A DNA stretch of 64,000 nt from positions 1,217,926-1,281,925 of the forward strand of contig OZ253467.1 of the NCBI GenBank assembly GCA_965261665.1. Direction: 5' to 3'. Position 1 is the stretch's first letter. Each line of letters begins with the position of its first letter. Under the pieces are notes generated by a model. That model saw nothing but the letters and a program-made list of their open reading frames with translations, ran no database searches and was not told the DNA's origin. Source of the DNA: Dehalococcoidia bacterium (GTDB lineage: Bacteria > Chloroflexota > Dehalococcoidia > Lucifugimonadales > GCA-2712585). The translations under genes were made by a program, and so were the position numbers. Positions 25,161 to 42,557 of this stretch are shown in pieces.

Positions 25161-26585
25161 GTGCGAAGGGGTCGCCGAGGTTCTGAAGGACGTTACAGCC
25201 CGGAGATCACTTTGAGTGTTGTGGATCTCAGCCGCGTGTACGAACTACAGATTGACGACGGCGACAACCGCCTCGGCGCGACGCGCGCAGCACTGGGCGC
25301 AAACTTGGATTTCCACGGCACGGACGGCAGCTACGGCTCCCACGCTTGGCACCCCTTCCCCGCGAAGTTCCCGCCGCAGTTGCCGGAGTTCATGATCCGC
25401 CATCTCTCAGACCCCGGAGACCTCGTTTTCGACCCAATGGTTGGCTCTGGGACTACGCTCGTCGAAGCCGTACGGCTCGGACGTCGAGCCGTTGGCTGCG
25501 ATATCGACCCGTTGGCGCGAATGATTACAGCAGCCAAGTTGACCCCGATTGACCCGTTTGCCGTCCTATGGGAGGGAAACGGGATCATAGCTGGTGCTAG
25601 TGACGACTATCACCGATTCCGTTGGAGGCTGGAAAGGGACTTTAGTCTGCGGTTCGACTCGAGGACAGAGCAGTTCATCCACTACTGGTTCCCGCCGCAG
25701 CAACAGCTTGAACTTCTTGCTCTAGTGCAGCGCATCGAAGCGCTGCCCAAGGGAGGCACTCGAGACTTCCTCAAGGTCGTATTCTCATCAACCATCATTG
25801 CCAAATCTGGCGGAGTATCTCTGGCGCGAGACCTAGCACACACCCGTCCTCACAGAGACACAGAAAAAACGCCAAAATCGGCCTTCGTAGAGTTTGGTAA
25901 GCGCCTACAGCGAAATGTGGCGGCTTTCGCCAAGAACAAGCTGACCGACAACATGATACCCTCCCGTCTCAGCGGGGCCGGTGAGGCTCGGGTATCTGCT
26001 CCCTTTATATCCATACACGCCGCAAGCGCTGCTGACACTGGCCTGCCGCCAGCTAGTGTAGACCTGATCGTGACATCGCCACCCTATGCGAACAATGCTA
26101 TCGACTATATGCGCGCGCACAAGTTCTCGCTAGTGTGGTTTGACTGGAAGATCGCCGACCTTGCCCGGATTCGCGCTCAATATGTAGGGCACGATGCGAT
26201 AGCTGGTCTGCGCTGCGACGGGCTGCCCAGTCAATGCGAAGAAACATTGGCAAAACTGGCGGAGCGTGACGAACGGAAGGCACTGGTATTGCGTCGCTAC
26301 TTCGAGGAGATGAAGACCGTGATTTGGGAGATGCTGCGAGTGTTGAAAAGAGGTAGGCCGGTTGTGATAGTCGTAGGGTCCTCGAGGTTACGAGGCTTGG
26401 ACGTAGAGACACATAAGGGACTCGCCGCCATTGGCGAAAATGCAGGTTTCATCCTAGCCGGAATTGGCACCCGCTTACTTGATCGGGACAAACGGATGAT
26501 GCCAGCGCGATGGGGCCGGCTACAGCAGTCACAGATCGAAGAGCGCATGTACAAAGAGTACGTGCTTGGATTTGTGAAGCCGTAA
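25161..26585 (+). CDS. DNA methyltransferase with SPPY catalytic motif (N4-cytosine/N6-adenine class, motif I before motif IV)
   Basis: Motif I is VFDPMVGSGTTLVEA at about residue 95. Motif IV is DLIVTSPPYANNAIDY at about residue 300. The stop overlaps the start of the downstream endonuclease (TAATG). The 5' start is uncertain. Confidence 0.8.
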   Translation: MRRGRRGSEGRYSPEITLSVVDLSRVYELQIDDGDNRLGATRAALGANLDFHGTDGSYGSHAWHPFPAKFPPQLPEFMIRHLSDPGDLVFDPMVGSGTTLVEAVRLGRRAVGCDIDPLARMITAAKLTPIDPFAVLWEGNGIIAGASDDYHRFRWRLERDFSLRFDSRTEQFIHYWFPPQQQLELLALVQRIEALPKGGTRDFLKVVFSSTIIAKSGGVSLARDLAHTRPHRDTEKTPKSAFVEFGKRLQRNVAAFAKNKLTDNMIPSRLSGAGEARVSAPFISIHAASAADTGLPPASVDLIVTSPPYANNAIDYMRAHKFSLVWFDWKIADLARIRAQYVGHDAIAGLRCDGLPSQCEETLAKLAERDERKALVLRRYFEEMKTVIWEMLRVLKRGRPVVIVVGSSRLRGLDVETHKGLAAIGENAGFILAGIGTRLLDRDKRMMPARWGRLQQSQIEERMYKEYVLGFVKP

Positions 26586-27421
26586 TGACAGGCAGGATCG
26601 AAGCTCTCAGACAGAATTATCACCGTCGAATTTGTAGTGAAGTGTTGAGGTTGCCTGCGTCAGGAATTCCTAGCAACGCCGATAAAGGAAGTACTTCGAG
26701 TGTCCGAATCGCTAAGGGTATTGTAGAGAACATTGGGCTTCCGCTGAAATCCGAAAGATTGCCAGGACAGACGGCGGGGCGTCGGTTCGAGGATGAGACA
26801 AGGCGCTTCTTGTGCGACGCATTTGGATTACTTTCTCATTTACGCCCGGGGAAATGGGATTTCTCGCTGGGCGGAGACATACGTGACTATGAGCAATACC
26901 TGCATTTGTCCGATGTGCGACGAGTAGTCGAACAGCATGAGGAGTTGCGTGTCATCTTCGGCGACTATATTGTCACGCCTGACATTGTTGTTTGCCGAGA
27001 GCCGGTTACAGATTCAGAGATCAACGAGAGCGAAGCCCTACTGAATGACGACGCCGTGGCTACCTACACGCCACTGCGACGCGTAAATTCGCAAGCGAAG
27101 ATCCTGCATGCGAGCGTGTCCTGCAAATGGACGATTCGCAGCGACCGGTCTCAAAACGCACGTACAGAGGGTCTGAACCTTGTGCGTAACCGAAAAGGCA
27201 AGACGCCGCATATAGTCGTCGTCGTAGGGGAACCTCTGCCTGGACGAATTGCGTCGCTTGCCTTTGGCACGGGTGATATCGACTGCATCTACCATTTCGC
27301 CCTGAGGGAACTGAGGGCCGCAGCTATGGATTGCGATTCGGACGCTGACATGTTGGACACACTCGTCACTGGCAGGAGGCTACGCGATATCAGTGACTTG
27401 CCATTTGACTTGGCTGCCTGA
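26585..27421 (+). CDS. type II restriction endonuclease, NgoMIV/Cfr10I-like
   Basis: 278 aa from the ATG at 26585. Along its length it resembles my recollection of R.NgoMIV: SERLPGQT, YIVTPDIVV, LHASVSCKWTIRSDRSQNARTEGLNLVRNRKG, PHIVVV, GTGDIDCIYHFAL, RLRDISDLPFDLA. This needs a REBASE/BLAST check. Confidence 0.7.
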   Translation: MTGRIEALRQNYHRRICSEVLRLPASGIPSNADKGSTSSVRIAKGIVENIGLPLKSERLPGQTAGRRFEDETRRFLCDAFGLLSHLRPGKWDFSLGGDIRDYEQYLHLSDVRRVVEQHEELRVIFGDYIVTPDIVVCREPVTDSEINESEALLNDDAVATYTPLRRVNSQAKILHASVSCKWTIRSDRSQNARTEGLNLVRNRKGKTPHIVVVVGEPLPGRIASLAFGTGDIDCIYHFALRELRAAAMDCDSDADMLDTLVTGRRLRDISDLPFDLAA

Positions 27422-27753
27422 GCTTCCAACTGTGCCCTGCTTTTCTTAGAGTGTGTCTAATAAATCCCTTTGTTACCCCGAGCGCTCCATGTCACCTTGA
27501 GTGAAGCCGAAGGGTCTGGAGTTGGAGGGGCGGACTTCGTTGCCTAACAGACGTTTATGCTTCGCTCCACCGACGCCCTTTTTAGACACCCTCTTAGATC
27601 GTGATACGTACTTGGCTGTACGCAGGCTGTTAGAGAAATGCTGCGGGTATATTGGAGTAGTGCTGGGAATTCTTAACGGCGGGTGATTCTTTGGGGGATG
27701 GGATGGGGGGATGGGTGTTGCGGAGGGGGATTGTGTGCTGGCATAATGCTGTC

Positions 27754-27990
27754 ATGCCGGTTCAGATTACGATAAGGAATGTTCCAGAGGAAGTTAGGGA
27801 CGAGCTCGCCGCTCTCGCCGCACTTAAACGTCAGTCGATGCAGGAATTCTTGCGAGGCGAGTTGGAACGCATCGCGTCAAGACCTTCCATCGACACATGG
27901 CTGCAAGTCGTCCGTGAGCGGAAGGCGGTATACAAAACACGGGTGACGTCGGACGACATACTGGGTGCACGCGACGAAGACCGGAAGTGA
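27754..27990 (+). CDS. vapB: VapB/FitA-like ribbon-helix-helix antitoxin
   Basis: MPVQITIRNVPEEVRDELAALAALKRQSMQEFLRGELERIA. It overlaps vapC by 4 nt (GTGA). Confidence 0.75.
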   Translation: MPVQITIRNVPEEVRDELAALAALKRQSMQEFLRGELERIASRPSIDTWLQVVRERKAVYKTRVTSDDILGARDEDRK

Positions 27991-28391
27991 CGACGGTTGT
28001 CGACGCGTCCGTACTAGTAGCGGCGCTGGTGGAGCCCGGGGGCGATGGCAGGTGGGCGGAATCTACGCTTGCCGAGGGCAATTTGGCCGGTCCGGAGTTG
28101 GCTATGGTAGAGGCCAGCAACATCCTGCGCCGTTTGGAGAGGCGTGAGCAGATATCTCGGTTGAAGGCTACCAGCGCTCATAAGGACCTGCTTCGGCTGG
28201 AGATCGAGCTGTTTCCCTTTGCACCTTTCGCTGAGCGTGTATGGGCGTTGCGTGGAAATCTGACCAGCTACGACGCATGGTACGTTGCACTGGCAGAGGC
28301 GCTGAATTGTCCGTTGGCGACGCTGGACCGGAGGCTGAGTCGCGCTCGCGGGCCAGTCTGTGAGGTTGTTGTTCCGCCCCGTTCCCGATAG
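27987..28391 (+). CDS. vapC: PIN-domain toxin VapC
   Basis: 134 aa with an N-terminal VVDASVLV (first acidic residue), EASN, and a DAWYVALAE...LATLD pattern. Confidence 0.8.
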   Translation: MTTVVDASVLVAALVEPGGDGRWAESTLAEGNLAGPELAMVEASNILRRLERREQISRLKATSAHKDLLRLEIELFPFAPFAERVWALRGNLTSYDAWYVALAEALNCPLATLDRRLSRARGPVCEVVVPPRSR

Positions 28392-30416: not shown

Positions 30417-30562
30417 CTCTTTCACCGAAGAGGGAATTGGGGATGATGATAGAGGGTAGGGGGTTGGTGTTTCAATGGCTGTGGCGTGGTTAGTCGAGGG
30501 CAGGCGAGAACGTGGTGATATACTCGGGAGCGTCAGAGGACATGGCACGGAGGTGTTGTGAG

Positions 30563-31117
30563 ATGAGATTTTTGGCGGTATTGATGTGTCTAGCGTTGAT
30601 GGCGTTGGGCTTGACGGCCTGCGGCGGTTCCGAGGGTCCTTCGGCTGAGGAGAAGAATGTGCCGCCGGATATTACGCTGCTGCAGGCGATAGACTTCGAT
30701 AACGTTAAGATGGTGCAGCGTCACATGGAATACGGAACGGACCCCAACGAGGTGTTCATTCCGGAGGGCTACCCCTTCGCTGGCGCGTCGGCGCTTCACC
30801 AGGCGGTATTGAAGAACAATGTGGAGATTGTGCGGCTGCTGTTGGAGAGCGGGGCGGATCTTGAGATAAGGGCGAGGGATGAGTTCAAGGGGACGCCCCT
30901 CATTTGGGCTGCCTACTGGGGACTGTTCGACATGGCGAAGCTGCTGTTGGAAGAGGGAGCGGACGTCAACATACCGGATTCCTACGGGAGTACGCCGCTG
31001 GATGCGGCCAGCGTGGAGAATCCCTTCATCGGCAAGGAAGACGCGGATGGGTTCATTGAGAACCGGGAGAGGATTCGGACGTTGCTACGGGAGAATGGGG
31101 GAACTGGGGGCAAGTAG
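30563..31117 (+). CDS. ankyrin-repeat lipoprotein
   Basis: MRFLAVLMCLALMALGLTACGG is a lipobox. At least 3 ANK repeats follow (SALHQAVLKNNVEIVRLLLESGADLE; TPLIWAAYWGLFDMAKLLLEEGADVN; TPLDAA). A GGAGGTG RBS precedes the ATG at 30563. Confidence 0.8.
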   Translation: MRFLAVLMCLALMALGLTACGGSEGPSAEEKNVPPDITLLQAIDFDNVKMVQRHMEYGTDPNEVFIPEGYPFAGASALHQAVLKNNVEIVRLLLESGADLEIRARDEFKGTPLIWAAYWGLFDMAKLLLEEGADVNIPDSYGSTPLDAASVENPFIGKEDADGFIENRERIRTLLRENGGTGGK

Positions 31118-31131
31118 TTGGAGAGAGGTTG

Positions 31132-31498
31132 GGGGATGGATTCCCGCCTTCGGAGACCTTTACATAACCGTCATTCCGGCCCTGAGCCAGAATCCAGAGG
31201 TGGGGATTTAGGATTGAACCCCATGCCTATTCTGTCCAATATGGTCTCTCACTAGCAGTTATGCAAAGGTCTCCCTTCGCGGGAAAAACGGATAGGGAGG
31301 GCAACCATAAGGGTTGGACCAGCGGGGCCAGGCATGGATTTCCGCCGATGTCTTTACGGGGGTGGGCTATGTGGGGAATGGATTCTCGCCCCAGTCTTCA
31401 CGAGAGCAGGCTCTTCGCGGGAAAAACCGGGGGGGAGAAGAGTATCGTGAGGGGGACGATATTCCGCGGGAATGTCAGTGGGGGTGAAGGGTGGGGGA
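31132..31498 (+). repeat. mosaic of hairpin repeats with a nested MITE
   Basis: A ggattcccgccttc...cttcgcgggaa hairpin is split by the MITE. gggaatggattctcgccccagtcttcacgagagcaggctcttcgcggg is at about 31375. Confidence 0.8.
31152..31274 (+). mobile_element. 123-bp MITE, copy 2
   Basis: The terminal inverted repeats are GGAGACCTTTACATAAC (31152-31168) and GTTATGCAAAGGTCTCC (31258-31274). A 4-bp direct repeat CTTC is at 31148-31151 and 31275-31278. Removing the element restores the hairpin TTCCCGC-CTTC-GCGGGAA. Confidence 0.8.
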
Positions 31499-32283
31499 GG
31501 GCGACCACAAGGGTCGCCCCTACAGAAGAGGGGACGGAGCGGCATGATGTTGGAGGGGGAAGGGTGGTTCACGAACCGCCCCTGCGGGGGGTTGGTCGCA
31601 CGGTCGCATGTAACGGGCGACCACAAGGGTCGCCCCTACGGGAAGGGGGGACGGAGTGGGATGATGTTTGAGGGAAGGGCGGTTCACGAACCGCCCCTAC
31701 GGGGGGTTGGTCGCACGGTCGCATGTAACGGGCGAGCACAAGGGACGCCCCTACGGGAAGAGGGGACGGAGAGGCATGATGTTGGAGGGGGAAAGGCGGT
31801 CCCCGAACCGCCCCTACGGGGGGTTGGTCGCACGGTCGCATGTAACGGGCGACCACAAGGGACGTCCCTACGAGAAGAGGGGATGGAGAGGCATGATGTT
31901 GGAGGGGGAAAGGCGGTTCCCGAACCGCCCCTACGGGGGGTTGTCGCACGGTCGCATGTAACGGGCGATCACGAGGGACGCCCCTATGGTAAGGGGGGAC
32001 GGAGTGGGATGACGTGGGAAGGGGAAGGGTGGTTCCCGAACCGCTCCTATGGGGGTTGGCCGCACGGTCGCATGTAACGGGCGATCACGAGGGACGCCCC
32101 TACGGGAAGAATGGACGGAGTGGGATGACGTGGGAGAGGAAAGGGCGGTTCCCGAACCGCCCCTACGGGGGGTTGGCCGCACGGTCGCATGTAACGGGCG
32201 ACCACGAGGGACGCCCCTACGGGAAGAATGGACGGAGTGGGATGACGTGGGAGAGGAAAGGGCGGTTCGGGAACGGCCCCTAC
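31499..32283 (+). repeat. higher-order tandem array: 7 units of about 116 bp, each with two different REP-like hairpins
   Basis: GGGCGACCACAAGGGTCGCCCCTAC-type hairpins start at 31499, 31615, 31730, 31847, 31963, 32079 and 32196. They alternate with GGG(C/T)GGTTC(A/C)CGAACCGCCCCTAC-type hairpins. The linkers are conserved (..acggagyggsatgatgttggaggg.. and ggggggttggtcgcacggtcgcatgtaac). Confidence 0.9.
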
Positions 32284-32393
32284 GAATTGCCAAGAACGTC
32301 GGCGTCAAGAGCATAGTGGCGGTCTATTTGCATAGTAATGGCGGGTATGGAGTTGTGAGGGGATTGGGCCGGAATTGCGGATGGGCCAGCTTG

Positions 32394-32402
32394 TGATAAA
32401 AT
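32394..32402 (+). promoter_or_regulatory. candidate extended -10 element upstream of the repeat-protein gene
   Basis: TGATAAAAT (TGn + TAAAAT) lies 36 nt upstream of the ATG at 32438. A GAGGAGGA RBS is at about 32426. Confidence 0.3.
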
Positions 32403-32437
32403 TAGAGAAATTAGATATGTAGAAATGAGGAGGAAAG

Positions 32438-33805
32438 ATGCCGCTAGGCAATCTAGGAAATAGCATTAGGAATAGTATCGTTGGGACAATCAGGGGCGTG
32501 GGGGATGTGGTGGGTTCGACTATTGACACTACTAAAGACACCACCGTGAAGGCCCTTCAGGGCGTGAGGGACATAGGGAAGGAAGCAACGGGCACAGTGA
32601 CAGAAGTGGTAACTGGGGTGATTCACGGGGCGGTGGAAGTGGGCGCCGACGTGGGGGGGGCGGCCAAGGGGGCCGTGATAGGGACTATTCTGGGAGTGGG
32701 AGAGGTGACGACGGTTACCGCCGGAACGCTGAGCGACACTGTGCGGGCGGCCATCAGGGGCACCCGTGAGGTAGGTGGAGACGTGGCGGAGGCGGGCCGT
32801 GGCGCGGCTGAAGGGGCGATTTCCACGACGAAGTCTTTGACGTTGAGTCTGGAGGACGCGGCGTCCAGCGTGGCCGTGGGGGCTATCAGGGGAGCGAATG
32901 ACGTGGGGAGCGAGTTGACGATAACGGCCAAATCGATAGTTGTGGGGACCGCGAACGGCGCAGAGGAGGCCGGGGCCAGCGTTACAGGGGCGATTTTCAA
33001 CAGTGCGCGGGGTCTGATCAAAGGCACTTCCGAAGTGGGCGGCGACGTGGCAGGGGTAGCCCAAAGCGCCGCAGAGGGCGCGATAACCACCAGCAAGTCG
33101 TTAGCAATCAGCTTGGAAGACGCCGCGTCCGGCGTGGCTCGAGGAGCCATTAACGGGGCGCACGACGTGGGGAGCGACCTGGGCAATACGGCCAAGTCTG
33201 TAGTTGTGGGGAGCGTTAGCGGCGCGGAAGAGATTGGCGGCAGCGCGACGTCGGCCATCTCCAACAGCGCCCAGGGGTTGATAAGAGGCGCATCCGACGT
33301 GGGCGGCGACGTAGCCGGTGTGGCCCGCAGTGCCGCCGAGGGCGCGATTAGCACCAGCAAGTCGGTGGTAGTCAGTCTGGAGGATGCGGCGTCCAGCGTG
33401 GCTCGTGGGGCCATCCAAGCCACCCATGAGGTAGGCGCAGACGTGATCGAAACGGCCAAGTCGGTTGTAGTGGGGAGCGCCAACGGGGCTGAGGAGATAG
33501 GCGGTAGCGTGACCGTGGCAGTCTCCAACAGCGCCCGAGGCGTGATTCAGGGAACGTCCGACGTGGGCGGCGACCTGGGCACGGCGGCACGTAGCGCGGT
33601 GGAGGGCGCTATTGATAGCGCGAAGTCCGTGAGCGTAAAGGCCGAGGATGCGGCATCGGCCGCGGCTACAGGAGCCATTGAGGCGGCAAGCGCCATCAGC
33701 GATTCCGCCGGCCAGACGGTGCGGAATGCCGTGACCGGAACTATCGGCGGCGTGTCGGTGGTCGTGAAGGCTCCCTTCAACCAGGGCGAAGAGAAAAAGT
33801 CTTAA
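32438..33805 (+). CDS. Gly/Ala/Val/Ser-rich protein made entirely of 22-residue (2 x 11-mer) repeats; function unknown
   Basis: 455-aa ORF with no signal peptide or TM segment. The 88-aa super-repeat starts at residues 106, 194, 282 and 370 (I(R/K/Q)G(T/A)S(E/D)VGGD(V/L)). The DNA period is 264 bp from 32753 to about 33697. The RBS is strong. Confidence 0.8.
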   Translation: MPLGNLGNSIRNSIVGTIRGVGDVVGSTIDTTKDTTVKALQGVRDIGKEATGTVTEVVTGVIHGAVEVGADVGGAAKGAVIGTILGVGEVTTVTAGTLSDTVRAAIRGTREVGGDVAEAGRGAAEGAISTTKSLTLSLEDAASSVAVGAIRGANDVGSELTITAKSIVVGTANGAEEAGASVTGAIFNSARGLIKGTSEVGGDVAGVAQSAAEGAITTSKSLAISLEDAASGVARGAINGAHDVGSDLGNTAKSVVVGSVSGAEEIGGSATSAISNSAQGLIRGASDVGGDVAGVARSAAEGAISTSKSVVVSLEDAASSVARGAIQATHEVGADVIETAKSVVVGSANGAEEIGGSVTVAVSNSARGVIQGTSDVGGDLGTAARSAVEGAIDSAKSVSVKAEDAASAAATGAIEAASAISDSAGQTVRNAVTGTIGGVSVVVKAPFNQGEEKKS

Positions 33806-33857
33806 CCAAGGGCGCGGGAAATCCGGGCGAAAGTCCGTCAGAAATAGGAAATAGTTT

Positions 33858-33900
33858 GGGGCCAGTCGCACGCGATTCTTGCGGCTGGCCCCTTCTGTTG
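33858..33900 (+). terminator. candidate intrinsic terminator
   Basis: GGGGCCAG(tcgca)...(tgcgg)CTGGCCCC forms a hairpin followed by ttctgttg, 53 nt after the stop at 33805. Confidence 0.45.
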
Positions 33901-33974
33901 AACTTTTGGAGTTGGCGGTTGACTCGGAGCGAAGTTGCAGGGCGGAAATTGTCGGAAACACAAAGGCGTAAGAA

Positions 33975-34964
33975 TTGAAGCATCCTAGAAGAAGACGCGT
34001 AACCGTTCCAGTATCCAGCAGGTTTCTGCGGATGGTCCAGAGGATCCAGCTGATGGCTGAGATCTTTGGGCTAGGGCTTGCAAAGCTCAAGCGGGAACTG
34101 GGGGTTACCAGGCTGGGCAGAACTTTCGTGGCGCGTCTGACCGTTCGGGTGGTCCAGGAATTGGGGGACGACGACGCGACGCACATGGCGGCCAGCGTGA
34201 GCTACTACGCCGTGCTTTCGCTCTTTCCGCTGGTGCTGGGGTTGAGTACCATCATTAGCACGGTGGCCAATTCTCCGGGCCGGCAGGACCAAGTAATAGA
34301 GTTCATTGTAGACTATCTGCCCGGCTCGGAGGCATTTGTGCGCGATACGCTGTCCAGCCTGGCAAAGTACAACGCGGCCTTCGGCATCGTTTCCTTCTTC
34401 AGCTTGTTGTGGGCGGGCAGCGCCGTGTTCGGGGGCATTACTCGAGCGGTGAACCGGGCGTGGGACGTGGAGAAGGACCTGCCATTCTACAAAAATAAGC
34501 CGAGGCAGATGTTGATGGCCGCCGGGGTTTCGCTGCTGTTCTTTCTCTCTGTTGGCACCACCTCGTTGTTTCGATGGGCGGCGTCCATAGACGTTGGGGG
34601 CGCCCCCTTAGAACAGCAGATCGGTGGAGTGATGACGGTGATTCTGATGGAGATTCCGGTGCTGCTGGTGAATTTCCTCATCTTCGCGATCATCTATAAA
34701 TTCCTGCCCAACACCAAGACTCACTGGCGGTATATTTGGCTGGGAGCGGTAATTGCGGCGGGGCTATTTGAAGCGGGGAAGCACCTGTTCATCTGGTATT
34801 TAGACAACTTTGCCGACTACAGTGAGTTGTACGGAAGTGTGGCATCGGTGGTGGTTCTGATGGTCTGGGCTTACTTCTCAGCCTTCATCCTGATATTGGG
34901 CGCGGAGATTGCTTCCGAGTACCGCAGGTTGAAGTTGGCGATTGAGCGGGGCCATGAGGATTGA
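33975..34964 (+). CDS. YihY/BrkB (ribonuclease BN-like) family membrane protein
   Basis: AASVSYYAVLSLFPLVLGL, multiple TM helices, and a C-terminal WAYFSAFILILGAEIASEY. The start is uncertain (TTG at 33975, ATG at 34032 or 34053). Confidence 0.8.
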   Translation: MKHPRRRRVTVPVSSRFLRMVQRIQLMAEIFGLGLAKLKRELGVTRLGRTFVARLTVRVVQELGDDDATHMAASVSYYAVLSLFPLVLGLSTIISTVANSPGRQDQVIEFIVDYLPGSEAFVRDTLSSLAKYNAAFGIVSFFSLLWAGSAVFGGITRAVNRAWDVEKDLPFYKNKPRQMLMAAGVSLLFFLSVGTTSLFRWAASIDVGGAPLEQQIGGVMTVILMEIPVLLVNFLIFAIIYKFLPNTKTHWRYIWLGAVIAAGLFEAGKHLFIWYLDNFADYSELYGSVASVVVLMVWAYFSAFILILGAEIASEYRRLKLAIERGHED

Positions 34965-35008
34965 CGTCCTATTTTCTCTCAGAAAAAGCAACGTAAAGGA
35001 GGTTTATC

Positions 35009-35797
35009 ATGCCCTACCTAGTAACGACCGACGGCGTACCTCTCTATTTCGAGGATGAAGGGCCGAGGAACAACAGCGCCATATTTCTGATACATGCCGA
35101 GCCTTTCAACACCAAGTTCTGGCAGAAGAACATCGGCCCGATGGCCAAAGAGGTGCGGGTGGTTTCTATGGACGTGAGGGGACGGGGAGAGTCCGGCAAG
35201 ACGGACCAGGGTCACAATCTAGCCCAGTACGCCCGCGACTTCCGGTTCATGCTTGAAAGTTTGGGACTAGAACGCGTGGTGGCGGCGGGCTGGTCTATGG
35301 GGAGCGCCATTTTGTGGCGCTACGTGGAGATGTTCGGCGAAGACAGGATGGCGGGATTTGCAGACGTGGACCAGCGGCCGTACCGGTTTCGATCCTTCGA
35401 CGACCTGCTGGAGAAGTTAGAGGCGATCCGGAATTTCCGGCTTGAGGACCATCGGAAGGCAGTTGTGGACTATTTCGGGCCGGAGGCGAAGGTCTCGGAA
35501 GGGTTGATAGACTGGATGGCCTACGAGTGCATGAAGACGCCAACGTCGACACACCGGGCGGCGGCGTGGGAGTCGTACTTTGCCGACTTCCGGCCTGTGC
35601 TGAAGACAATGGACGCGCCCAGCAGAGTATTTTGGGCGCGGTACGGAGTTATTGACGAGCCGACGGCCCGGTTGCTGCTGGGGGGTTTGAAGAACTCAAA
35701 GGAAGTATTTTTTGAGCATAGCGGGCACCTGCTGTCGTGGACGGAGAAGGAGAAATTCAATGCGGCAATGCTGGATTTTGCGAGGGAGGTTCTTTAG
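35009..35797 (+). CDS. alpha/beta-fold hydrolase
   Basis: 262 aa with an LIHAEPFN oxyanion region, a GWSMGS nucleophile elbow (GxSxG) and a C-terminal HSGH. Confidence 0.8.
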   Translation: MPYLVTTDGVPLYFEDEGPRNNSAIFLIHAEPFNTKFWQKNIGPMAKEVRVVSMDVRGRGESGKTDQGHNLAQYARDFRFMLESLGLERVVAAGWSMGSAILWRYVEMFGEDRMAGFADVDQRPYRFRSFDDLLEKLEAIRNFRLEDHRKAVVDYFGPEAKVSEGLIDWMAYECMKTPTSTHRAAAWESYFADFRPVLKTMDAPSRVFWARYGVIDEPTARLLLGGLKNSKEVFFEHSGHLLSWTEKEKFNAAMLDFAREVL

Positions 35798-35893: not shown

Positions 35894-36559
35894 TTATAAC
35901 TCGTACTCTTTCAAGTCCTGCGCAACCTTTAACGTCGGCTCCGTCAGGGCCTGCACAGCCGCCGCCGTCCAATCGGGCGCGATCTCCCTCAGAATCATTC
36001 CTGCGGGCGTAACCTCTATCACCGCCAAGTCCGTCACCACCAGGCTTACGCACCCTCGCCCCGTCAGCGGAAACGTGCATTCTCTCACCACTTTGGGCCG
36101 ATTCCGACGGTCGGTGTGCTCCATCGCCACGATGACTCGCTTCGCCCCCACCGCCAGGTCCATCGCCCCGCCGATGTTTCCCACTCCTCTCTGCGGCAGC
36201 ATCCAGTTCGCCAGGTCGCCCCTCTCCGAGACCTGCAGCGCCCCCAGCACCGTAACATCGACGTGGCCCCCCCGAATCATCGCAAACGCCTCGTCCGACC
36301 CAAAGAAGGACATCCCGGGCACCCAACTCAGGAACTGCCCGCCCGCGTTGATTAAGTCGTAGTCCTTCTCGTAATCCTCCGCCAGCGGGCCGTAGTTCAG
36401 CACCCCGCTTTCGCTGTGATACGACACGGACTGCTCTCCCTCCAGGTAGTTGGACACCAGTGTAGGAATACCGATTCCCAGGTTCACCACCGCGTTGGCG
36501 GGCAGCTCCTTGGCCACCCGCATTGCGATTACGTCCCTCGGCAGACGCTCCTTATCCAA
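35894..36559 (-). CDS. 3-oxoacid CoA-transferase subunit B
   Basis: 221 aa with VNLGIGIPT, SESGVL (catalytic Glu region) and MGGAMDL motifs. Confidence 0.85.
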   Translation of the reverse strand: MDKERLPRDVIAMRVAKELPANAVVNLGIGIPTLVSNYLEGEQSVSYHSESGVLNYGPLAEDYEKDYDLINAGGQFLSWVPGMSFFGSDEAFAMIRGGHVDVTVLGALQVSERGDLANWMLPQRGVGNIGGAMDLAVGAKRVIVAMEHTDRRNRPKVVRECTFPLTGRGCVSLVVTDLAVIEVTPAGMILREIAPDWTAAAVQALTEPTLKVAQDLKEYEL

Positions 36560-36560
36560 G

Positions 36561-38012
36561 CTAAGCCTCCCCCACGGGCCGGAATGAGGAAAACCCCGCC
36601 GGGCGCTGTACTATCCTGTCCACGTACAGCCCAGGCGTCACCACTGCATCCGGGTCCAGCGTCCCCGCCTCTACAATCTCGTCCACTTCTGCTATCGTAA
36701 TCTCCGCCGCCGTGGCCATGGCAGCGTTGAAATTCCGCGACGTTCCCCGGTACACCAGGTTGCCCGCGGTGTCGGCCTTGTGCGCCCGGATGAAGGCGAA
36801 GTTCCCACGAATCGCCCGCTCTAATACGTACTCCCGCCCGTCGATTATCTTTGTTTCCTTGCCCTCCGCCACCACCGTGCCTGCTCCCGTGGGCGTGAAA
36901 AACGCCGGAATCCCTGCGCCCCCCGCCCGGAGCCGTTCCGCCAGCGTCCCCTGTGGCGCTAACTCCAACGTAACCTCGCCCCTCCGATACGCCTCCTCGA
37001 AGGCCGAGGGCCTCGATGGTGAGGGGGATACGGGGAAGGAAGCTATTGCATGCTTTATCTGCCCACGCTCTACCAGAATGCTGTGGTCGATGGCCTGCAG
37101 CCCTGGCGAAGGCGGCTGGCCGAACGTGGACACCCGCGCGATACCCACCGTGTTGCCGACCACCGTCAACTCCCGCGCCCCCTGGTCCCGCAGCGCCAGC
37201 ATCAGATAGTGCGCCATCCCTCCTATTCCCCCGAACCCGTCCATCAGAATAACCGCGCCGTCGGGGATGTCGGCCACTGCCGCCGCGGCGCTGGGAAACA
37301 CCTTGCTCAGAGGAGACTCCTCCAGAACGCCGAAGTCCATCTCCTTCACCGGCTCCGTCACGTCTAGCCGGGCTTCCGTTTCCGACTGAATCTCCGCCGC
37401 CGACCACCCCGGCGCTCGTTCTTTCAGGACCAGGCCCTCCGCGGTGACTTCAATGACGGCGATGTCTGTGACGATGAGATTTACCCGTCCGGCCACCGTC
37501 AACGGGTAGTCGCACCGTCGGAGAATCTTGGGCGCGCCCCTGTTGGAATGCTCCATAATGGCTATCAGCCGCTTTGCGCCGGCGGCCATGTCCAGACCCC
37601 CGCCAGGACTGCCGATTCCCTTGCTGGGAACCATCCAGTTTGAAAGGTCGCCCCGCTCCGATACCTGCAATGCTCCCAAGACCGCCACGTCCAGACGACC
37701 GCTGCGGACGATGCTGAAGGCGTCGGTATGACTGATTACGGCGCCCCCCGGATGCCAGGTAGTATGCTCACCGCGGGCGTTGATGAAATCCAGGTCCTCG
37801 GCTCCCTCCTCCGCATGAGGCCCGTATCGCAGAATTCCGTTCTCCGAGTGAAGAACGACTCCCCGACTCGCCGGCACGTAGTTTGCCACCAGCGTTGGCA
37901 TTCCGATGCCCAGGTTTACGACTTCCCCCGGCCGCAGCTCCGCCGCCACTCGCAGGGCCATCAACTCCCGGCTTAGCCTCTCAGCCATCTCACCCTCATC
38001 CTCCGACCACAA
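36561..38012 (-). CDS. fused CoA-transferase: subunit B domain (N-terminal) joined to subunit A domain (C-terminal)
   Basis: 483-aa continuous ORF. Residues 1 to about 215 carry the B pattern (VNLGIGMPT, SENGIL, PGGGLDM). From about residue 235 the A pattern appears (KVFPSAAAAVADIPDGAVILMDGFGGIG ... GAGIPAFFTPTG). No stop or start lies between the two domains. Confidence 0.8.
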   Translation of the reverse strand: MWSEDEGEMAERLSRELMALRVAAELRPGEVVNLGIGMPTLVANYVPASRGVVLHSENGILRYGPHAEEGAEDLDFINARGEHTTWHPGGAVISHTDAFSIVRSGRLDVAVLGALQVSERGDLSNWMVPSKGIGSPGGGLDMAAGAKRLIAIMEHSNRGAPKILRRCDYPLTVAGRVNLIVTDIAVIEVTAEGLVLKERAPGWSAAEIQSETEARLDVTEPVKEMDFGVLEESPLSKVFPSAAAAVADIPDGAVILMDGFGGIGGMAHYLMLALRDQGARELTVVGNTVGIARVSTFGQPPSPGLQAIDHSILVERGQIKHAIASFPVSPSPSRPSAFEEAYRRGEVTLELAPQGTLAERLRAGGAGIPAFFTPTGAGTVVAEGKETKIIDGREYVLERAIRGNFAFIRAHKADTAGNLVYRGTSRNFNAAMATAAEITIAEVDEIVEAGTLDPDAVVTPGLYVDRIVQRPAGFSSFRPVGEA

Positions 38013-38670
38013 TCCGGTTAACGTATATCCCGGGCGTAACCACCCGCTCCGGGTCTATCTCTCCTACCTCAACCACCTCCCGCACCTCCGCGACAGTAGT
38101 CTTTGCGGCGGCAGCCATCGTGGGATTGTAGTTTCGCTGCGCGAGCCTGTACGTCAGGTTGCCCAGCCTGTCGGCCTGATGCCCGCCAATCAGGGCTAAG
38201 TCTGCTCCCAGGGGCGACGCTAGGACATACTCCCTGCCCTCAAACGATTGGGTGTCCTGCTCCTCGAACACGGTGCCTACGTAGTTGGGGACGTAGACGC
38301 TGCCCAATCCCGCACCTGCCGCCCGCATCCTCTCTGCCAGAATCCCCTGCGGCACAACCTCCACCTCCAGCTTTCCCTTGCGCCACAACTGCAGGGCCGG
38401 AATTTCCTGGTTGGGCCGCCCGAAGAAGGTTGTTATCAGCTTTCGGACCTGCCCGCGCTCCACCAGGCGGGCGACGTCATACTCGCCGGGCTTCGGCTCG
38501 AAGCAGGTGTTGCAGATGAACGTCAGATTCCGAGGCCCCAACTCCATGAGCGCCTTCACCAAACTCTGAGGCAGGCCAGGCTTGCCGAAGCCACCCAGCA
38601 TGATGACGGCTCCGTCGGACACGTCCTCCAACGCCTCAACCGCTGACGAATAGACCTTCCCATGAGCCAT
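37996..38670 (-). CDS. 3-oxoacid CoA-transferase subunit A
   Basis: 224 aa: KVYSSAVEALEDVSDGAVIMLGGFG..., QGILAERMRAAGAGLG. Confidence 0.85.
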   Translation of the reverse strand: MAHGKVYSSAVEALEDVSDGAVIMLGGFGKPGLPQSLVKALMELGPRNLTFICNTCFEPKPGEYDVARLVERGQVRKLITTFFGRPNQEIPALQLWRKGKLEVEVVPQGILAERMRAAGAGLGSVYVPNYVGTVFEEQDTQSFEGREYVLASPLGADLALIGGHQADRLGNLTYRLAQRNYNPTMAAAAKTTVAEVREVVEVGEIDPERVVTPGIYVNRIVVGG

Positions 38671-38798
38671 AGCAGGCGATTCCCCCCAACAACGCTGACC
38701 GCATTCTACCAGCCCCCGCCCCTCCTAGAAACACCACTACCCACCCCGTATACACTGCCAGCCCTTCTGATGCCGCGCGTCATTCTCTAAAGTCACAT

Positions 38799-38837
38799 GT
38801 CATTCTGATCGCAGCGAAGCGGAGTCGAGGAATCTCG
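38799..38837 (-). repeat. gtcattctga...gaatctc short repeat (opposite orientation to the copies at 8717, 46989 and 59155)
   Basis: gtcattctgatcgcagcgaagcggagtcgaggaatctcg. Confidence 0.8.
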
Positions 38838-39072
38838 TGGCACGCCCTCATATTTCATACACGAACTCCCAGCCTCCTCTCCAGTTGGACCATCCCGTGA
38901 AGCGTTTTGGCTCCATGATCGTCGCACTGAGGCAGTTGATAGCCGAAGAAGAGGCCGACATAATAGAACATGGACGGGAATTGGTCGCCTATGGGCTCCT
39001 AGTTATCGTACAAAGGCTTACACTCCATCCCCCTCATAATTTTTGCAATTCTAGAACCACGAAAGGAGCCTC

Positions 39073-39393
39073 ATGTCCATCTCCACTGCACCGCAAATGT
39101 TCATTCCTGCATACATTAGTCGTGTACCTGAAACCTCCGGCGTCTATGCGCTGAATGACGGCTTTAACATCATCTACTACGGCAGCGCCGAACATTCCAT
39201 CAGAGATAGTCTTATGGGTCATCTCAATGGCAAAGACGGTCCTTGCTCACAAAGAGCAATATGGTTCCTCTACGAAACAACGTCATCGCCGATAAAGAGA
39301 GAAAAAGAGCTGCTGGCCGAATTCCAGCAAGACTTCGGCAGACTCCCTGAATGCAACGAGGAGGCCTCACCCACCCTGGAAGAAGACAGCTAA
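39073..39393 (+). CDS. small GIY-YIG domain protein
   Basis: 106 aa: SGVYALNDGFNIIYYGSAEHSIRDSLMGHL gives GIY...YIG spacing with the following Arg. It lies in a lower-GC stretch. Confidence 0.6.
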   Translation: MSISTAPQMFIPAYISRVPETSGVYALNDGFNIIYYGSAEHSIRDSLMGHLNGKDGPCSQRAIWFLYETTSSPIKREKELLAEFQQDFGRLPECNEEASPTLEEDS

Positions 39394-39444
39394 CCCCCTC
39401 TTGTTCCTGCGAAGGCAGGAATCCACTCCTCTCCCACTCCACCC

Positions 39445-39555
39445 GTCATTCCGGCGAAAGCCGGAATCCAGACCCCACATTAGCCATGCCCTTTGTGCTC
39501 CCCACGACGCTAACCAAAACCCCACCGGTGGGGGCGGGTTTCAAACCCGCCCATT
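39445..39555 (+). repeat. gtcattccggcgaaagccggaatccag hairpin plus a degenerate REP-like hairpin
   Basis: 39445-39471 holds the stem CCGGC-gaaa-GCCGG. GGGCGGGTTTCAAACCCGCCC is at 39532-39552, followed by ATTC instead of CTAC. Confidence 0.8.
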
Positions 39556-39717
39556 CCCTCCCAATCTCATCATCACACGATCCGAAATCATCCTGAAACG
39601 AACGCGAAATGAAACCCTCCATTTTGACCACTTTCACGCCTAATATCCGGAAATGAACTTGAAATAAACTCGGATATACTCACCGCGTCCAATTTACGAT
39701 GTACCGCCCGTAAAGGC

Positions 39718-40218
39718 TCAGATAGCGGACACGGAAATAGCCACACCCTCCTCCCTTGGGTGCGATGTGTCCGGTAAGCGATGAATAAGCAACGTCCGAA
39801 AGTTGGAGTCGTCGTAATTCCAATGCTGTAAGGTGAAGGGATCTGTGCCATCCGAGCAAAACAATCCGGCGGCCACGGAGTCAAGAACGGGCTTAATGAA
39901 ATTCTCAACGTCCAGCTTGGCCTGGCCGCCCACCTTCCGATTACCGTGGTTCGACGGATGGAACGCCATCCCTAGCGAAATTGTGTACTGGAGAGTCTCG
40001 CTCCAAGAGCCTTCTCCTCGAACGGCCTTCACCTCCGAAGTTACCCAACGCTTCCAGTCCTTCTGCCCTGCTGTGTTCTCCGTGATACTGTTGATGATGT
40101 TTCCCCTCACTAGAGTGCACAGCCTCATCCTAGATTCAGCGAACTCAACAATAGGCACGTCCCATCCCCCTATGCTCTCTACCCGATACATAAGCTCACA
40201 CCTCACCATCTCTGTCAT
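39718..40218 (-). CDS. hypothetical protein with RusA-like Holliday-junction resolvase motif
   Basis: 166 aa. KLDVENFIKPVLDSVAAGLF....DD resembles the RusA D-x-(D/E)-N-x-x-K-x-x-x-D-x-(L/V) core. This is a weak assignment from memory only. Confidence 0.35.
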   Translation of the reverse strand: MTEMVRCELMYRVESIGGWDVPIVEFAESRMRLCTLVRGNIINSITENTAGQKDWKRWVTSEVKAVRGEGSWSETLQYTISLGMAFHPSNHGNRKVGGQAKLDVENFIKPVLDSVAAGLFCSDGTDPFTLQHWNYDDSNFRTLLIHRLPDTSHPREEGVAISVSAI

Positions 40219-40326
40219 TCAAAACCTCCTAATCTTGTTGTGAGCGCAACGAAGAATCTCGTCACCTCTACCAATCAGCATGGGCCTATCCCTTCCCCCC
40301 TTGTCAATCCTCTCCCCCTCCCCCCC

Positions 40327-40365
40327 AAAAAGAGGGGCGGCCCTGTGTGGGCCGCCCCTCTTTTG
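40327..40365 (-). terminator. intrinsic terminator downstream of groEL (bidirectional-looking)
   Basis: A perfect 13-bp stem AGAGGGGCGGCCC-tgtgt-GGGCCGCCCCTCT is flanked by A5 on one side and T4 on the other, 36 nt after the groEL stop. Confidence 0.8.
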
Positions 40366-40400
40366 TTTGCGCTCTTTTTAGGAAGCGGAAACTTTCTTGT

Positions 40401-42032
<1,632 letters not shown>

Positions 42033-42084
42033 TCAAAATTTCTGAATAAATGGGTTCGAAATCCGTGGCGATATGTCGTCCAGC

Positions 42085-42378
42085 CTATCTGTTAACCTTG
42101 GCCAGAACGTCGCTCTCCCGCAGAATCAGGTACTCCTGACCATCGTCCTTGTACTCGGTGCCTGCGTATTTGGAATAGATGATCCTATCCCCGGTCTGTA
42201 TCTCCATGGGTACGCGCGCACCTTCGTCTGTGACCCGGCCGGGTCCCACCGCCACAACCTCACCCTCCTGCGGCTTCTCTTTGGCAGTATCCGGAAGGAT
42301 TATTCCTGATGATGTGGTCTGTTCCTCCTCCAGTGGCTTGACTATCAACCTCTCTCCTAAAGGCGTGAATTTCACCAA
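42085..42378 (-). CDS. groS: co-chaperonin GroES
   Basis: 97 aa: [43 protein letters not shown]. Confidence 0.95.
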
Positions 42379-42435
42379 CGCTTCCTCCTCAAATTTTGGT
42401 TGTTTTGGGTCTGTCTACATTATTATGACTACTAA

Positions 42436-42462
42436 ATTAGCAGTCAAATCAATAGAGTGCTA
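42436..42462 (-). promoter_or_regulatory. CIRCE operator (HrcA binding site)
   Basis: TTAGCAGTC-N9-GAGTGCTAA versus the consensus TTAGCACTC-N9-GAGTGCTAA (1 mismatch). It sits between the promoter and groES. Confidence 0.85.
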
Positions 42463-42472
42463 AAACCTCGCT

Positions 42473-42502
42473 TATGATAGACTACGTCCTGAATGCTGTC
42501 AA
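42473..42502 (-). promoter_or_regulatory. sigma70-type promoter of groES-groEL
   Basis: On the minus strand: TTGACA (42497-42502), a 17-nt spacer, then TATCAT (42473-42478), immediately upstream of CIRCE. Confidence 0.75.
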
Positions 42503-42557
42503 TAGACCAATTTTTCAGCGAAAATCGTAACCCCAAGGCCTTGTATTCCATTTACTA

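Follow-up and report, generated by a model that had tools for sequence, protein, structure and literature searches.

The repeats of apolipoproteins are 22-mers, each built of two amphipathic 11-mers. Synucleins carry imperfect 11-mers of the KTKEGV type, which form 11/3 helices on lipid and present basic interfacial residues, and group-3 LEA proteins consist of tandem 11-mers that are highly hydrophilic, charge-rich and disordered when hydrated. HEAT, ARM and TPR-like alpha-solenoids stack tandem antiparallel hairpins of ~34–47 aa into elongated protein-interaction scaffolds, an architecture that designed helical-repeat proteins (DHRs) approach in idealised form. Proteins of the YihY/BrkB family (PF03631) are broadly conserved in the bacterial inner membrane and, to our knowledge, have no known function.

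The window (the whole 64-kb stretch of DNA analysed here) holds a gene for a repeat protein that lies directly upstream of a YihY/BrkB-type gene. We put at roughly 55% the probability that this protein is a soluble cytoplasmic alpha-solenoid of modular length that serves the YihY protein encoded downstream as an accessory subunit or scaffold. The features of the locus are as follows.

32427–32433, + strand: ribosome-binding site GAGGAGG, with 4 nt between it and the ATG, read from the sequence
32438–33805, + strand: coding sequence of the repeat protein; 455 aa as 20 units of 22 aa and a 15-aa tail, then the stop codon
32438–32752, + strand: conserved N-terminal module (units 1–5, residues 1–105), from the family alignment; common to the ~190-aa core members
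32753–33016, + strand: super-repeat copy 1 (residues 106–193), four units and four helices, from TRF and autocorrelation
33017–33280, + strand: super-repeat copy 2 (residues 194–281)
33281–33544, + strand: super-repeat copy 3 (residues 282–369)
33545–33757, + strand: C-terminal module (residues 370–440), EVGGD..AVEGAI..AEDAASAAATGA, from two alignments
33758–33802, + strand: C-terminal tail VVVKAPFNQGEEKKS, from pLDDT (43–45), motif conservation and fusion sequences
33824–33837, + strand: GNRA-loop hairpin CGGGC-GAAA-GTCCG just past the repeat-gene stop codon, from alignment
33858–33892, + strand: 13-bp GC-rich RNA hairpin followed by TTCTGTT, between the repeat and YihY genes
33975–34964, + strand: gene for a YihY/BrkB-family inner-membrane protein (PF03631, E=2.8e-59), with conserved adjacency or fusion

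A 22-residue register with 88-residue modules

The 20 units keep an unbroken register across residues 1–440 with zero indels. An earlier sequence-only reading had delimited the same 455-aa ORF at 32438–33805, now borne out on the + strand, and had parsed it into about 20 units of 22 aa, whose examples do occur in the phase it proposed; it had also placed a short N-terminus ahead of the repeats, which in fact start at residue 1. BLOSUM autocorrelation against 200 shuffles gives z=13 at lag 22, z=15 at lag 44 and z=27 at lag 88, and this 22/44/88 periodicity is far beyond chance. Lags 33, 55 and 77 reach z=3–4. The substructure of two 11-mers suggested earlier is not upheld, since z is 2.2 at lag 11, compared with 13 at lag 22, and the unit is the 22-mer.

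At the DNA level, TRF detects a period of 264 bp with 2.8 copies at 32846–33574. The corresponding 88-aa super-repeat starts at residues 106, 194, 282 and 370 (DNA 32753–33697), the positions given previously together with a count of 3.6 copies. Copies 1–3 are 66–73% identical in protein and 67–75% in DNA, whereas the partial fourth shares just 44–48% identity and is the family's conserved C-terminal module; the positions therefore stand, but there are only three close copies, and the "0.6" is that module. The alignments place the highest conservation anywhere in the family in this C-terminal module. The tail that follows bears a conserved G-V-x-V-V-x-K-x-P-F motif, is predicted to be disordered and, in fusion proteins, links the repeat part to the REC or YihY domain.

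A 264-bp DNA repeat in the region and a short-read relative with one copy fewer could point to a spurious ORF or an assembly artefact. This explanation is effectively refuted. The internal copies differ by ~30% in DNA and are thus not easily mis-assembled, and long-read chromosomes hold 366- and 453-aa versions (L003 and L002, respectively). Homologues number in the hundreds across phyla, the ribosome-binding site is good, as the earlier description of it as strong had implied (GAGGAGG, 4 nt from the ATG), and dN/dS is 0.04–0.15 against orthologues and 0.12–0.18 between internal copies. Judged by these substitution patterns, the repeat gene is real, conserved and under purifying selection.

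The protein is acidic and mildly hydrophobic (net charge -17, pI 4.7, GRAVY +0.25) and contains two Pro residues, both outside helices. It has no Cys, no Trp and no Tyr; the earlier claim that the repeats are free of aromatics holds for Trp and Tyr and fails at the single Phe (F187), which lies within them. The best 19-residue Kyte-Doolittle window scores only 1.40, so no TM segment is present, and no signal peptide is apparent by inspection; together with the lack of Cys, these absences agree with what had been read before. The repeat protein is probably cytoplasmic, in view of the missing signal peptide and TM segment and of the fusions to REC and SpoIIAA-like domains among family members.

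A predicted helical-hairpin stack and its lipid-binding alternative

AlphaFold2 (AF2) returns an entirely alpha-helical model with 21 helices (pLDDT 89.3, pTM 0.81), values to be read with caution, since AF2 tends to score idealised repeats confidently even from few aligned sequences (21 here). Helices of ~18 residues are broken by four residues at the VGGD positions and stack as hairpins. The position profile of the unit shows a conserved V-G-G-D/S capping turn and a G16/I18/G20 core. Each unit would thus comprise one 18-residue amphipathic helix and a four-residue V-G-G-D/S turn, with Gly as C-cap and Asp/Ser as N-cap. Small residues would line the apolar helix face (L/V6, A10, A/V13-14, A17, I18, A21 and the G16-x3-G20 pair), and neighbouring helices would form antiparallel hairpins, packed one on the next into an elongated array. 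For a natural repeat-YihY fusion, AF2 again predicts helical hairpins in the repeat part (pLDDT 75–93).

A Foldseek search with this all-helical model, a check proposed earlier, ranks designed helical-repeat proteins highest, namely 8cwy (E=1.9e-9, TMq 0.54), 8cws and 5cwb. The family profile also matches these at the sequence level. The DHRs concerned (5cwb DHR4 and the DHR-based chains of 8cwy/8cws) share a stack of helix-loop-helix hairpins that are nearly identical to one another, with helices of ~18–20 residues and short Gly/Ser/Asp loops. As they are artificial, the likeness is one of convergence towards an idealised architecture and does not indicate homology, and TM-scores to the repeat protein are only 0.43–0.54 because superhelical curvature differs. 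The family may therefore be viewed as a natural counterpart of idealised designed repeat proteins, and its exact 22-residue register, small-residue core and four-helix length quanta could be useful for studies of repeat growth and for protein engineering.

Weaker Foldseek matches include importins, beta-catenin and LGN TPRs. The predicted model and the Foldseek matches display the stacked helix-turn-helix hairpins in an elongated array that characterise alpha-solenoids. HEAT/ARM/TPR-like proteins differ in that they show no sequence or Pfam match to the repeat protein, whose unit is a single 22-aa helix-turn with both hairpin helices alike, whose core is Ala/Gly/Val/Ile without aromatics, and whose register runs free of indels for 440 residues.

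The amphipathic helices recognised in the sequence-only reading are thus those of a real protein, with a period of 22 residues. Their assignment to synuclein-, perilipin-, apolipoprotein- or LEA-like 11/3 helices fares less well, given the missing lag-11 signal, the capping turns, the folded model and the acidic composition. Under such an assignment the 22-mers would be exchangeable amphipathic helices able to spread as long 11/3 helices over a hydrophobic surface such as a membrane or a lipid droplet, and the protein would serve as a coat or would protect membranes. Apolipoprotein 22-mers share the 22-residue period, the apolar face of each helix in the position profile is ~180 degrees wide, and apolar positions 2, 6, 10, 13, 14, 17, 18 and 21 form a ~130-degree stripe when the profile is calculated on an 11/3 helix. 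Any 22-residue repeat will show a harmonic at 3.67 residues, and an extended, membrane-bound form is conceivable as far as sequence alone is concerned. Partners are also often membrane proteins (YihY, DUF502), and one family member approaches the chlorosome envelope protein CsmC below threshold (E=5e-5).

We nevertheless regard a lipid coat as rather unlikely. Periodicity at 11 residues is absent, a Gly-Gly-Asp/Ser capping turn is conserved in every unit, and AF2 gives a confident folded hairpin model of 21 separate helices. The apolar face is mostly Ala/Gly/Val, which suggests tight helix-helix packing instead of lipid insertion, and the net charge with few Lys would be unfavourable on anionic bacterial membranes. 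Pfam gives no match to LEA_4, Synuclein, Apolipoprotein, Perilipin or Phasin even at E<=10, and CsmC is matched by just one of 63 members, under its cut-off. The genomic context comprises a YihY/BrkB membrane protein, signalling and alpha-glucan operons, not lipid droplets; of the lipid-droplet or desiccation role raised earlier, the former part is opposed by this context, and a faint echo of the latter persists in the trehalose/alpha-glucan enzymes and MscS channels beside some members.

Each related class departs from the repeat protein in specific ways. ApoA-I/A-IV/E (PF01442) also repeat an amphipathic helix every 22 residues and mark the breaks between helices, though with Pro where the repeat protein has Gly-Gly-Asp; the repeat protein is acidic, bacterial and cytoplasmic, with its two Pro outside helices, no 11-mer sub-repeat and no Pfam match, and membership of the exchangeable apolipoproteins was rejected despite the period of 22. 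With alpha-synuclein, the 11-mers of perilipin and group-3 LEA proteins it shares amphipathic helices and a period that numerically fits 11/3, yet it lacks the lag-11 signal, is neither Lys-rich nor strongly hydrophilic, and is predicted to be folded. Synuclein (PF01387) and perilipin (PF03036) were rejected on the absent Pfam match, the lack of an 11-mer period and the net charge of -17, and group-3 LEA (PF02987, LEA_4) on the lack of a match at E<=10, lag-11 z=2.2, GRAVY +0.25 and the folded model.

Two further candidates, CsmC and ElaB/YqjD, are small helical Ala/Gly/Val-rich proteins of membranes or envelopes, the latter combining an N-terminal DUF883 domain with a transmembrane anchor at the C-terminus. 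For CsmC (PF11098) the window protein has no match, and the hit of the one member among 63 (23.8 bits against a cut-off of 26.3) was not reproduced across the others and is judged compositional. ElaB/YqjD/DUF883 (PF05957) reaches E=0.12 and 12.8 against 25.4 bits, and the C-terminal hydrophobic segment or membrane anchor is missing; the JGI source annotation of one family fragment names DUF883/ElaB. In both cases matches lie under curated cut-offs, the repeat protein lacks a C-terminal anchor, and the hosts have no chlorosomes.

Family distribution, a probable YihY/BrkB partner and alpha-glucan neighbours

Scans of the repeat protein against Pfam, NCBIfam, PHROGs and PADLOC and a sequence search of the PDB gave nothing significant, consistent with the earlier failure to assign it to a known family, and literature searches returned no account of the repeat family. 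Sequence matches place it in an as yet unnamed family that is widespread in bacteria and comprises at least 537 clusters (representatives at E<=1e-3), with phmmer E-values to relatives down to 1e-71 and matches in the representative-sequence search spanning residues 1–120. Self-similarity is strongest at 22 residues in 80 of 88 members. A profile search of a 5.8-billion protein set, in which 20 matches passed the word prefilter, added little. The protein carries the N-terminal module (~105 aa), the C-terminal module EVGGD..AVEGAI..AEDAASAAAxGA and the G-V-x-V-V-x-K-x-P-F tail, and the family core is ~190 aa, composed of these two conserved modules and the short conserved tail.

A survey of homologues and repeat number, suggested previously, shows orthologue lengths of 279, 366–367 and 453–455 aa, in steps of 88 aa throughout. 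The near-identical orthologue L001 lacks an in-register 88-aa block at the junction of copies 2 and 3 (residues 210–297). In the Dehalococcoidia lineage the stack appears to have grown through insertion of 88-aa modules of four helices each; orthologues hold one, two or three of these and the window protein three.

Such a quantised length series, very regular repeats and GxxxG-like surfaces of small residues, which could mediate helix-helix contacts between molecules, would also suit a structural protein that assembles with itself into a filament, a sheet or the coat of a granule and whose subunit length depends on the number of repeats. One family member weakly matches tape-measure proteins in PHROGs (E=5.7e-6), and a weak PDB match is of the same kind. 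We consider self-assembly improbable: the window repeat protein has no PHROGs match, 2.9 million viral contigs hold no family relatives, bactofilin or other cytoskeletal matches are absent save one of 63 members (bactofilin, E=0.009), and fusions to signalling and membrane domains suit an adaptor better than a polymer. A phage tape-measure protein was rejected on the same PHROGs and viral-contig results and on its cellular neighbours; Gly/Ala-rich helical repeat segments and length changes by whole modules are shared, but the matches are marginal and composition-driven and phage context is missing. A beta-solenoid, bactofilin or adhesin, proteins with beta-strand repeats and in adhesins also a secretion signal, was likewise rejected, given the all-alpha AF2 model, the isolated bactofilin match and the absence of a signal peptide.

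The preferred role as a YihY subunit draws on gene order. Searching genome contigs with the C-terminal module gave 111 relatives, and the 80 best of them were retained as loci. In Chloroflexota a same-strand YihY gene lies downstream of the repeat gene in 42 of 54 loci, within 700 bp in 41, and in other phyla YihY occurs within the locus in 6 of 26, in varied arrangements, with 20 lacking it; these counts come from a biased sample, as the genome loci (80–91 inspected) were all recovered by a single C-terminal peptide pattern. The repeat domain is fused N-terminally to YihY in 18 of 191 sampled family proteins, while 144, some of them fragments, have no fused partner domain. With the 20 loci that lack YihY, these unfused proteins indicate that the role of the family is not exclusively YihY-linked.

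The recurrent adjacency and fusion suggest that the repeat protein is probably YihY's cytoplasmic partner. Both YihY termini are cytoplasmic (bioRxiv 10.64898/2026.03.31.715626). The repeat protein would then be a putative subunit that assists, scaffolds or regulates, from the cytoplasm, the six-TM YihY/BrkB-type protein directly downstream, docking probably at the cytoplasmic N-terminal side of that protein, and the number of modules would determine how long it is or how far it reaches. The AF2 model of a natural fusion has a pTM of 0.51, with pLDDT ~40 in its YihY part, and the geometry between its domains is unusable. The start of the YihY gene in the window is uncertain (TTG at 33975, or ATG at 34032 or 34053). 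As YihY has no known function, partnership with it confers no biochemical activity on the repeat protein; a conserved, adjacent and sometimes fused partner is nevertheless a concrete starting point for work on YihY.

Paralogues extend the picture to alpha-glucan metabolism. The order GlgE / repeat-REC / TreS-Mak / MalQ/GlgB is found in four of four independent loci, and the repeat domain appears to be wired to degenerate receiver domains inside these GlgE operons, an arrangement that fits a protein-protein interaction or output module. Judging by these paralogues, trehalose/alpha-glucan metabolism in Chloroflexota may include a regulator or scaffold that has gone unrecognised. A standalone member follows TreS and MalQ in a Methylomirabilales MAG, CBM48/alpha-amylase genes adjoin members in Nitrospiraceae and Vicinamibacterales, MscS-type channel genes do so in five loci (L015, L019, L022, L046 and L047), and L062 has a neighbouring MS_channel_1st_1 protein. 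Trehalose is a classic stress solute (PMC7549927).

These neighbours could indicate a sensor or regulator linked to osmotic or desiccation stress. The repeat domain would in that case be a new cytoplasmic sensing or regulatory module, responding for example to hydration, ionic strength or turgor, that gates or regulates YihY/BrkB, is coupled to mechanosensitive channels and, through its receiver-fused paralogues, acts on the GlgE trehalose-to-alpha-glucan pathway. We hold this to be doubtful. Outside the REC-fused subfamily the apparent association involves a handful of loci, no gene for trehalose or glucan metabolism or for MscS lies close to the repeat ORF in the window, and the sequence yields no sensing mechanism. 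A search of the 64 kb brought up neither another member of the family nor homologues of GlgE, TreS or KaiC. If true, such a module would offer the first functional handle on YihY and a previously unknown regulator of alpha-glucan metabolism.

Hairpins between the repeat and YihY genes

Consensus terminator and promoter scans of 31100–35100 returned nothing, leaving the 13-bp hairpin at 33858–33892 uncalled, and Rfam found nothing in 30900–34100. The GNRA-loop hairpin is nearly invariant among the window, L001, L002 and L003, with one loop position differing in L003. The 66-nt stretch with the 13-bp hairpin has an MFE of -31.4 kcal/mol (z=-4.5), and in the alignment the stem is conserved and the loop varies; a C-G pair of the stem is replaced by U-A in L002, a compensatory change. 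This second hairpin is a possible partial terminator or stabiliser, and its conservation could mean that the repeat and YihY genes are partly uncoupled in transcription.

A 22-residue repeat and its predicted fold

The following features define the repeat-protein gene:
32438–33805, + strand: repeat-protein ORF, 455 aa
4 nt upstream of its ATG: ribosome-binding site, GAGGAGG
32846–33574: tandem repeat found by TRF, period 264 bp, 2.8 copies

The sequence-only reading described a short N-terminus followed by end-to-end 22-residue units, each made of two 11-mers, behind a strong ribosome-binding site. The 22-residue repeats and the ribosome-binding site are confirmed. Set in rows of 22, the protein runs in unbroken register through residues 1–440 without a single indel, and there is no separate leader. 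BLOSUM autocorrelation, scored against 200 shuffles, gives z values of 13, 15, 13.5 and 27 at lags 22, 44, 66 and 88, versus only 2.2 at lag 11, and the 11-mer substructure is absent. Of the 88-aa super-repeat copies proposed (3.6, with four starts), those starting at residues 106, 194 and 282 are close (pairwise identity 66–73% in protein, 67–75% in DNA), whereas the segment from residue 370 is a diverged relative (44–48%).

The protein is rich in Ala (17%), Gly (16%), Val (13%) and Ser (11%). As described earlier, it lacks a transmembrane segment (top 19-residue hydropathy window, 1.40) and contains no Cys. Its repeats had also been called free of aromatics; Trp and Tyr are indeed absent from all 455 residues, but Phe occurs at F187 within the repeats, and once more in the tail.

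The unit profile reads E/D, V/I, G, G, D/S, L/V, x, x, A/T, A, K/R/S over positions 1–11 and S/N, A/V, A/V, x, G, A, I, x, G, A/T, x over positions 12–22, with G16 conserved in 18/20 units, I18 in 16/20 and G20 in 14/20. An AlphaFold2 model built from a 21-sequence alignment (pLDDT 89.3, pTM 0.81) contains 21 helices, each ~18 residues long; the 4-residue breaks between them coincide with V-G-G-D/S at unit positions 2–5. In classical capping, Gly ends a helix and Asp or Ser then N-caps the next. A helical wheel puts positions 6, 9, 10, 13, 14, 17, 18, 20 and 21 on an apolar face made up of small residues, which includes a G16-x3-G20 pair; positions 1, 8, 11, 12, 15, 19 and 22 are polar, a pattern that suits tightly packed antiparallel helices. 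An alpha-solenoid fold is predicted by the model with high confidence.

The amphipathic 11/3 lipid-binding helix proposed earlier is not supported. The autocorrelation lacks an 11-mer signal, conserved helix breakers recur every 22 residues, the model is folded, the protein is acidic and mildly hydrophobic overall (net charge −17, pI 4.7, GRAVY +0.25), and Pfam returns no match to LEA_4, synuclein, apolipoprotein, perilipin or phasin. Even so, any repeat of 22 residues brings with it a harmonic at 22/6 = 3.67 residues, and the apolar positions would align on a continuous 11/3 helix as well, so the protein might still open up in contact with lipid.

An undescribed, modular family

The repeat protein belongs to an undescribed family within the well-known alpha-solenoid class of structures. 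The top Pfam match of the protein, DUF883 (E=0.12), scores 12.8 bits, below the cut-off of 25.4, and searches of NCBIfam, PHROGs, PADLOC and PDB sequences gave no match. Chlorosome_CsmC was rejected, scoring 23.8 bits against a cut-off of 26.3 and matching only 1/63 family members. Source annotations read 'hypothetical protein' or name the fused domain alone. Exhaustive phmmer against 1.84 billion representatives recovers 537 clusters at E<=1e-3 and 139 at E<=1e-10. Dehalococcoidia MAGs predominate among genome matches, with Nitrospirales, Methylomirabilota/Rokubacteria, Acidobacteriota, Gemmatimonadota and others as further hosts; no relatives were found in 2.9 million viral contigs.

Relatives are typically about 180–200 aa and share an N-terminal module (about 105 aa), a C-terminal module (EVGGD..AVEGAI..AEDAASAAAxGA) and a conserved tail, G-V-x-V-V-x-K-x-P-F, which is predicted to be disordered in the window protein (pLDDT about 44). 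Lag 22 gives the strongest self-similarity in 80/88 family members. Within the window's Dehalococcoidia clade, orthologues measure 275–279, 365–369 or 453–455 aa, corresponding to a core extended by one, two or three four-helix modules of 88 aa each. The orthologue at locus L001 matches the window protein at 362/367 residues and lacks exactly residues 210–297, although it lies on a short-read contig and the missing block may be repeat collapse. Versions of 366 aa (L003) and 453 aa (L002) both lie on long-read chromosomes.

Against orthologues from other Dehalococcoidia genomes, the gene shows dN/dS of 0.04–0.15. Internal 88-aa copies compared with each other give dN/dS of 0.12–0.18 at dS 0.9–1.7. 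This means that the duplications are old and that selection has maintained the copies. The repeat protein is real, conserved and structurally regular.

Genomic links to YihY/BrkB and to receiver domains

What makes the repeat protein most useful is how strongly its genomic context ties it to YihY/BrkB, an unexplained family of membrane proteins, a member of which lies directly 3' of the gene:
33975–34964, + strand: YihY/BrkB gene (PF03631, E=2.8e-59)

YihY position at the best 80 of 111 relatives, recovered with one C-terminal pattern
Chloroflexota loci (n=54): immediately downstream on the same strand, 42; elsewhere in locus, 0
Other-phyla loci (Nitrospiraceae, Rokubacteria/Methylomirabilota, Acidobacteriota; n=26): immediately downstream on the same strand, 2; elsewhere in locus, 4

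Domain architectures among 191 sampled family proteins
Repeat domain without a fused partner (some are fragments): 144
Fused to a receiver (REC) domain: 26
N-terminal to a fused YihY domain: 18
Behind a DUF502 membrane domain: 2
Fused to a SpoIIAA-like domain: 1

By the Rosetta-stone principle, fusion of separately encoded neighbours is a classical sign of functional or physical association. AlphaFold2 of a natural repeat-YihY fusion again yields helical hairpins (pLDDT 75–93), but its membrane domain is modelled at low confidence (pLDDT about 40, pTM 0.51), and the model gives no docking geometry. The YihY fold is CysZ-like, with six TM segments and both termini cytoplasmic (10.64898/2026.03.31.715626), so a repeat domain fused to its N-terminus would lie in the cytoplasm. 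We infer that the repeat protein is probably cytoplasmic and serves the adjoining YihY protein as a helical-repeat adaptor or regulatory subunit, with a length set by four-helix modules. An alpha/beta-hydrolase gene (35009–35797) follows the YihY gene; among relatives, just the closest (L001, L002, L003 and L011) keep it in this position.

In paralogues, the repeat domain would act as a module for interaction or output. At 4/4 independent Dehalococcoidia loci (L081, L088, L090 and L091), receiver-fused paralogues of about 303 aa sit between GlgE and TreS-Mak, with MalQ and/or GlgB downstream. On inspection, their receivers retain the phospho-acceptor Asp, Ser/Thr and Lys; the N-terminal acidic pair is substituted (e.g. 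I-V-N-G-N or V-I-D-S-N), which suggests that these receivers are atypical. This paralogue is a candidate for a GlgE-pathway component that has so far gone unrecognised. P0001, the closest full-length relative, carries a receiver-like domain at its N-terminus (L084–L086), and its gene (6001–7329 in L084) begins 2 nt past the end of a gene for a double-domain KaiC-like ATPase; KaiC-like genes also adjoin family members in L054 and L021. Other recurrent neighbours include MscS-type channels (L015, L019, L022, L046, L047, L062), CBM48/alpha-amylase proteins (L046, L047, L079) and TreS with MalQ (L016). These trehalose/alpha-glucan and MscS neighbourhoods keep a stress-related reading alive, but beyond the REC-fused subfamily they are anecdotal.

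Intergenic hairpins and the surrounding window

Two conserved hairpins occupy the 170-bp spacer between the repeat and YihY genes:
33824–33837: small GNRA hairpin
33858–33892: 13-bp GC-rich hairpin

The 66-nt stretch around the larger hairpin has an MFE of −31.4 kcal/mol (z=−4.5). Its stem is conserved across L001–L003, where L002 carries a single compensatory change from C-G to U-A, and its loop is variable. A consensus terminator scan made no call here; the hairpin may attenuate transcription as a partial terminator, or stabilise the transcript.

Upstream, the spacer between an ankyrin-repeat gene (30512–31117) and the repeat-protein gene holds a tandem array (31499–32284; 117-bp unit, 6.8 copies, 90% matches) that has no Rfam match and gives rise to several spurious overlapping ORFs. 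In L002, tblastn coordinates place the two genes seemingly <100 bp apart; the array thus resembles an insertion or expansion specific to the window genome. Its core hairpin, GGGCGGTTCCCGAACCGCCCCTACGG, is dispersed in the window, with 12 matches at <=3 mismatches versus 0 expected, and looks like a REP-like palindromic element of strict orientation:
2216, 31562–32168 (6 sites), 45491, 45616, 54527, 56441 and 63664, all + strand: GGGCGGTTCCCGAACCGCCCCTACGG sites

For most of the window, GC skew on the + strand is strongly positive, reaching +0.38; around 36000–43000, where genes occupy the − strand, it reverses. The skew appears to track gene orientation. Within 26510–28391, an NgoMIV-type restriction endonuclease gene (PF09015, E=2e-102) adjoins a FitA-like antitoxin/PIN toxin pair.
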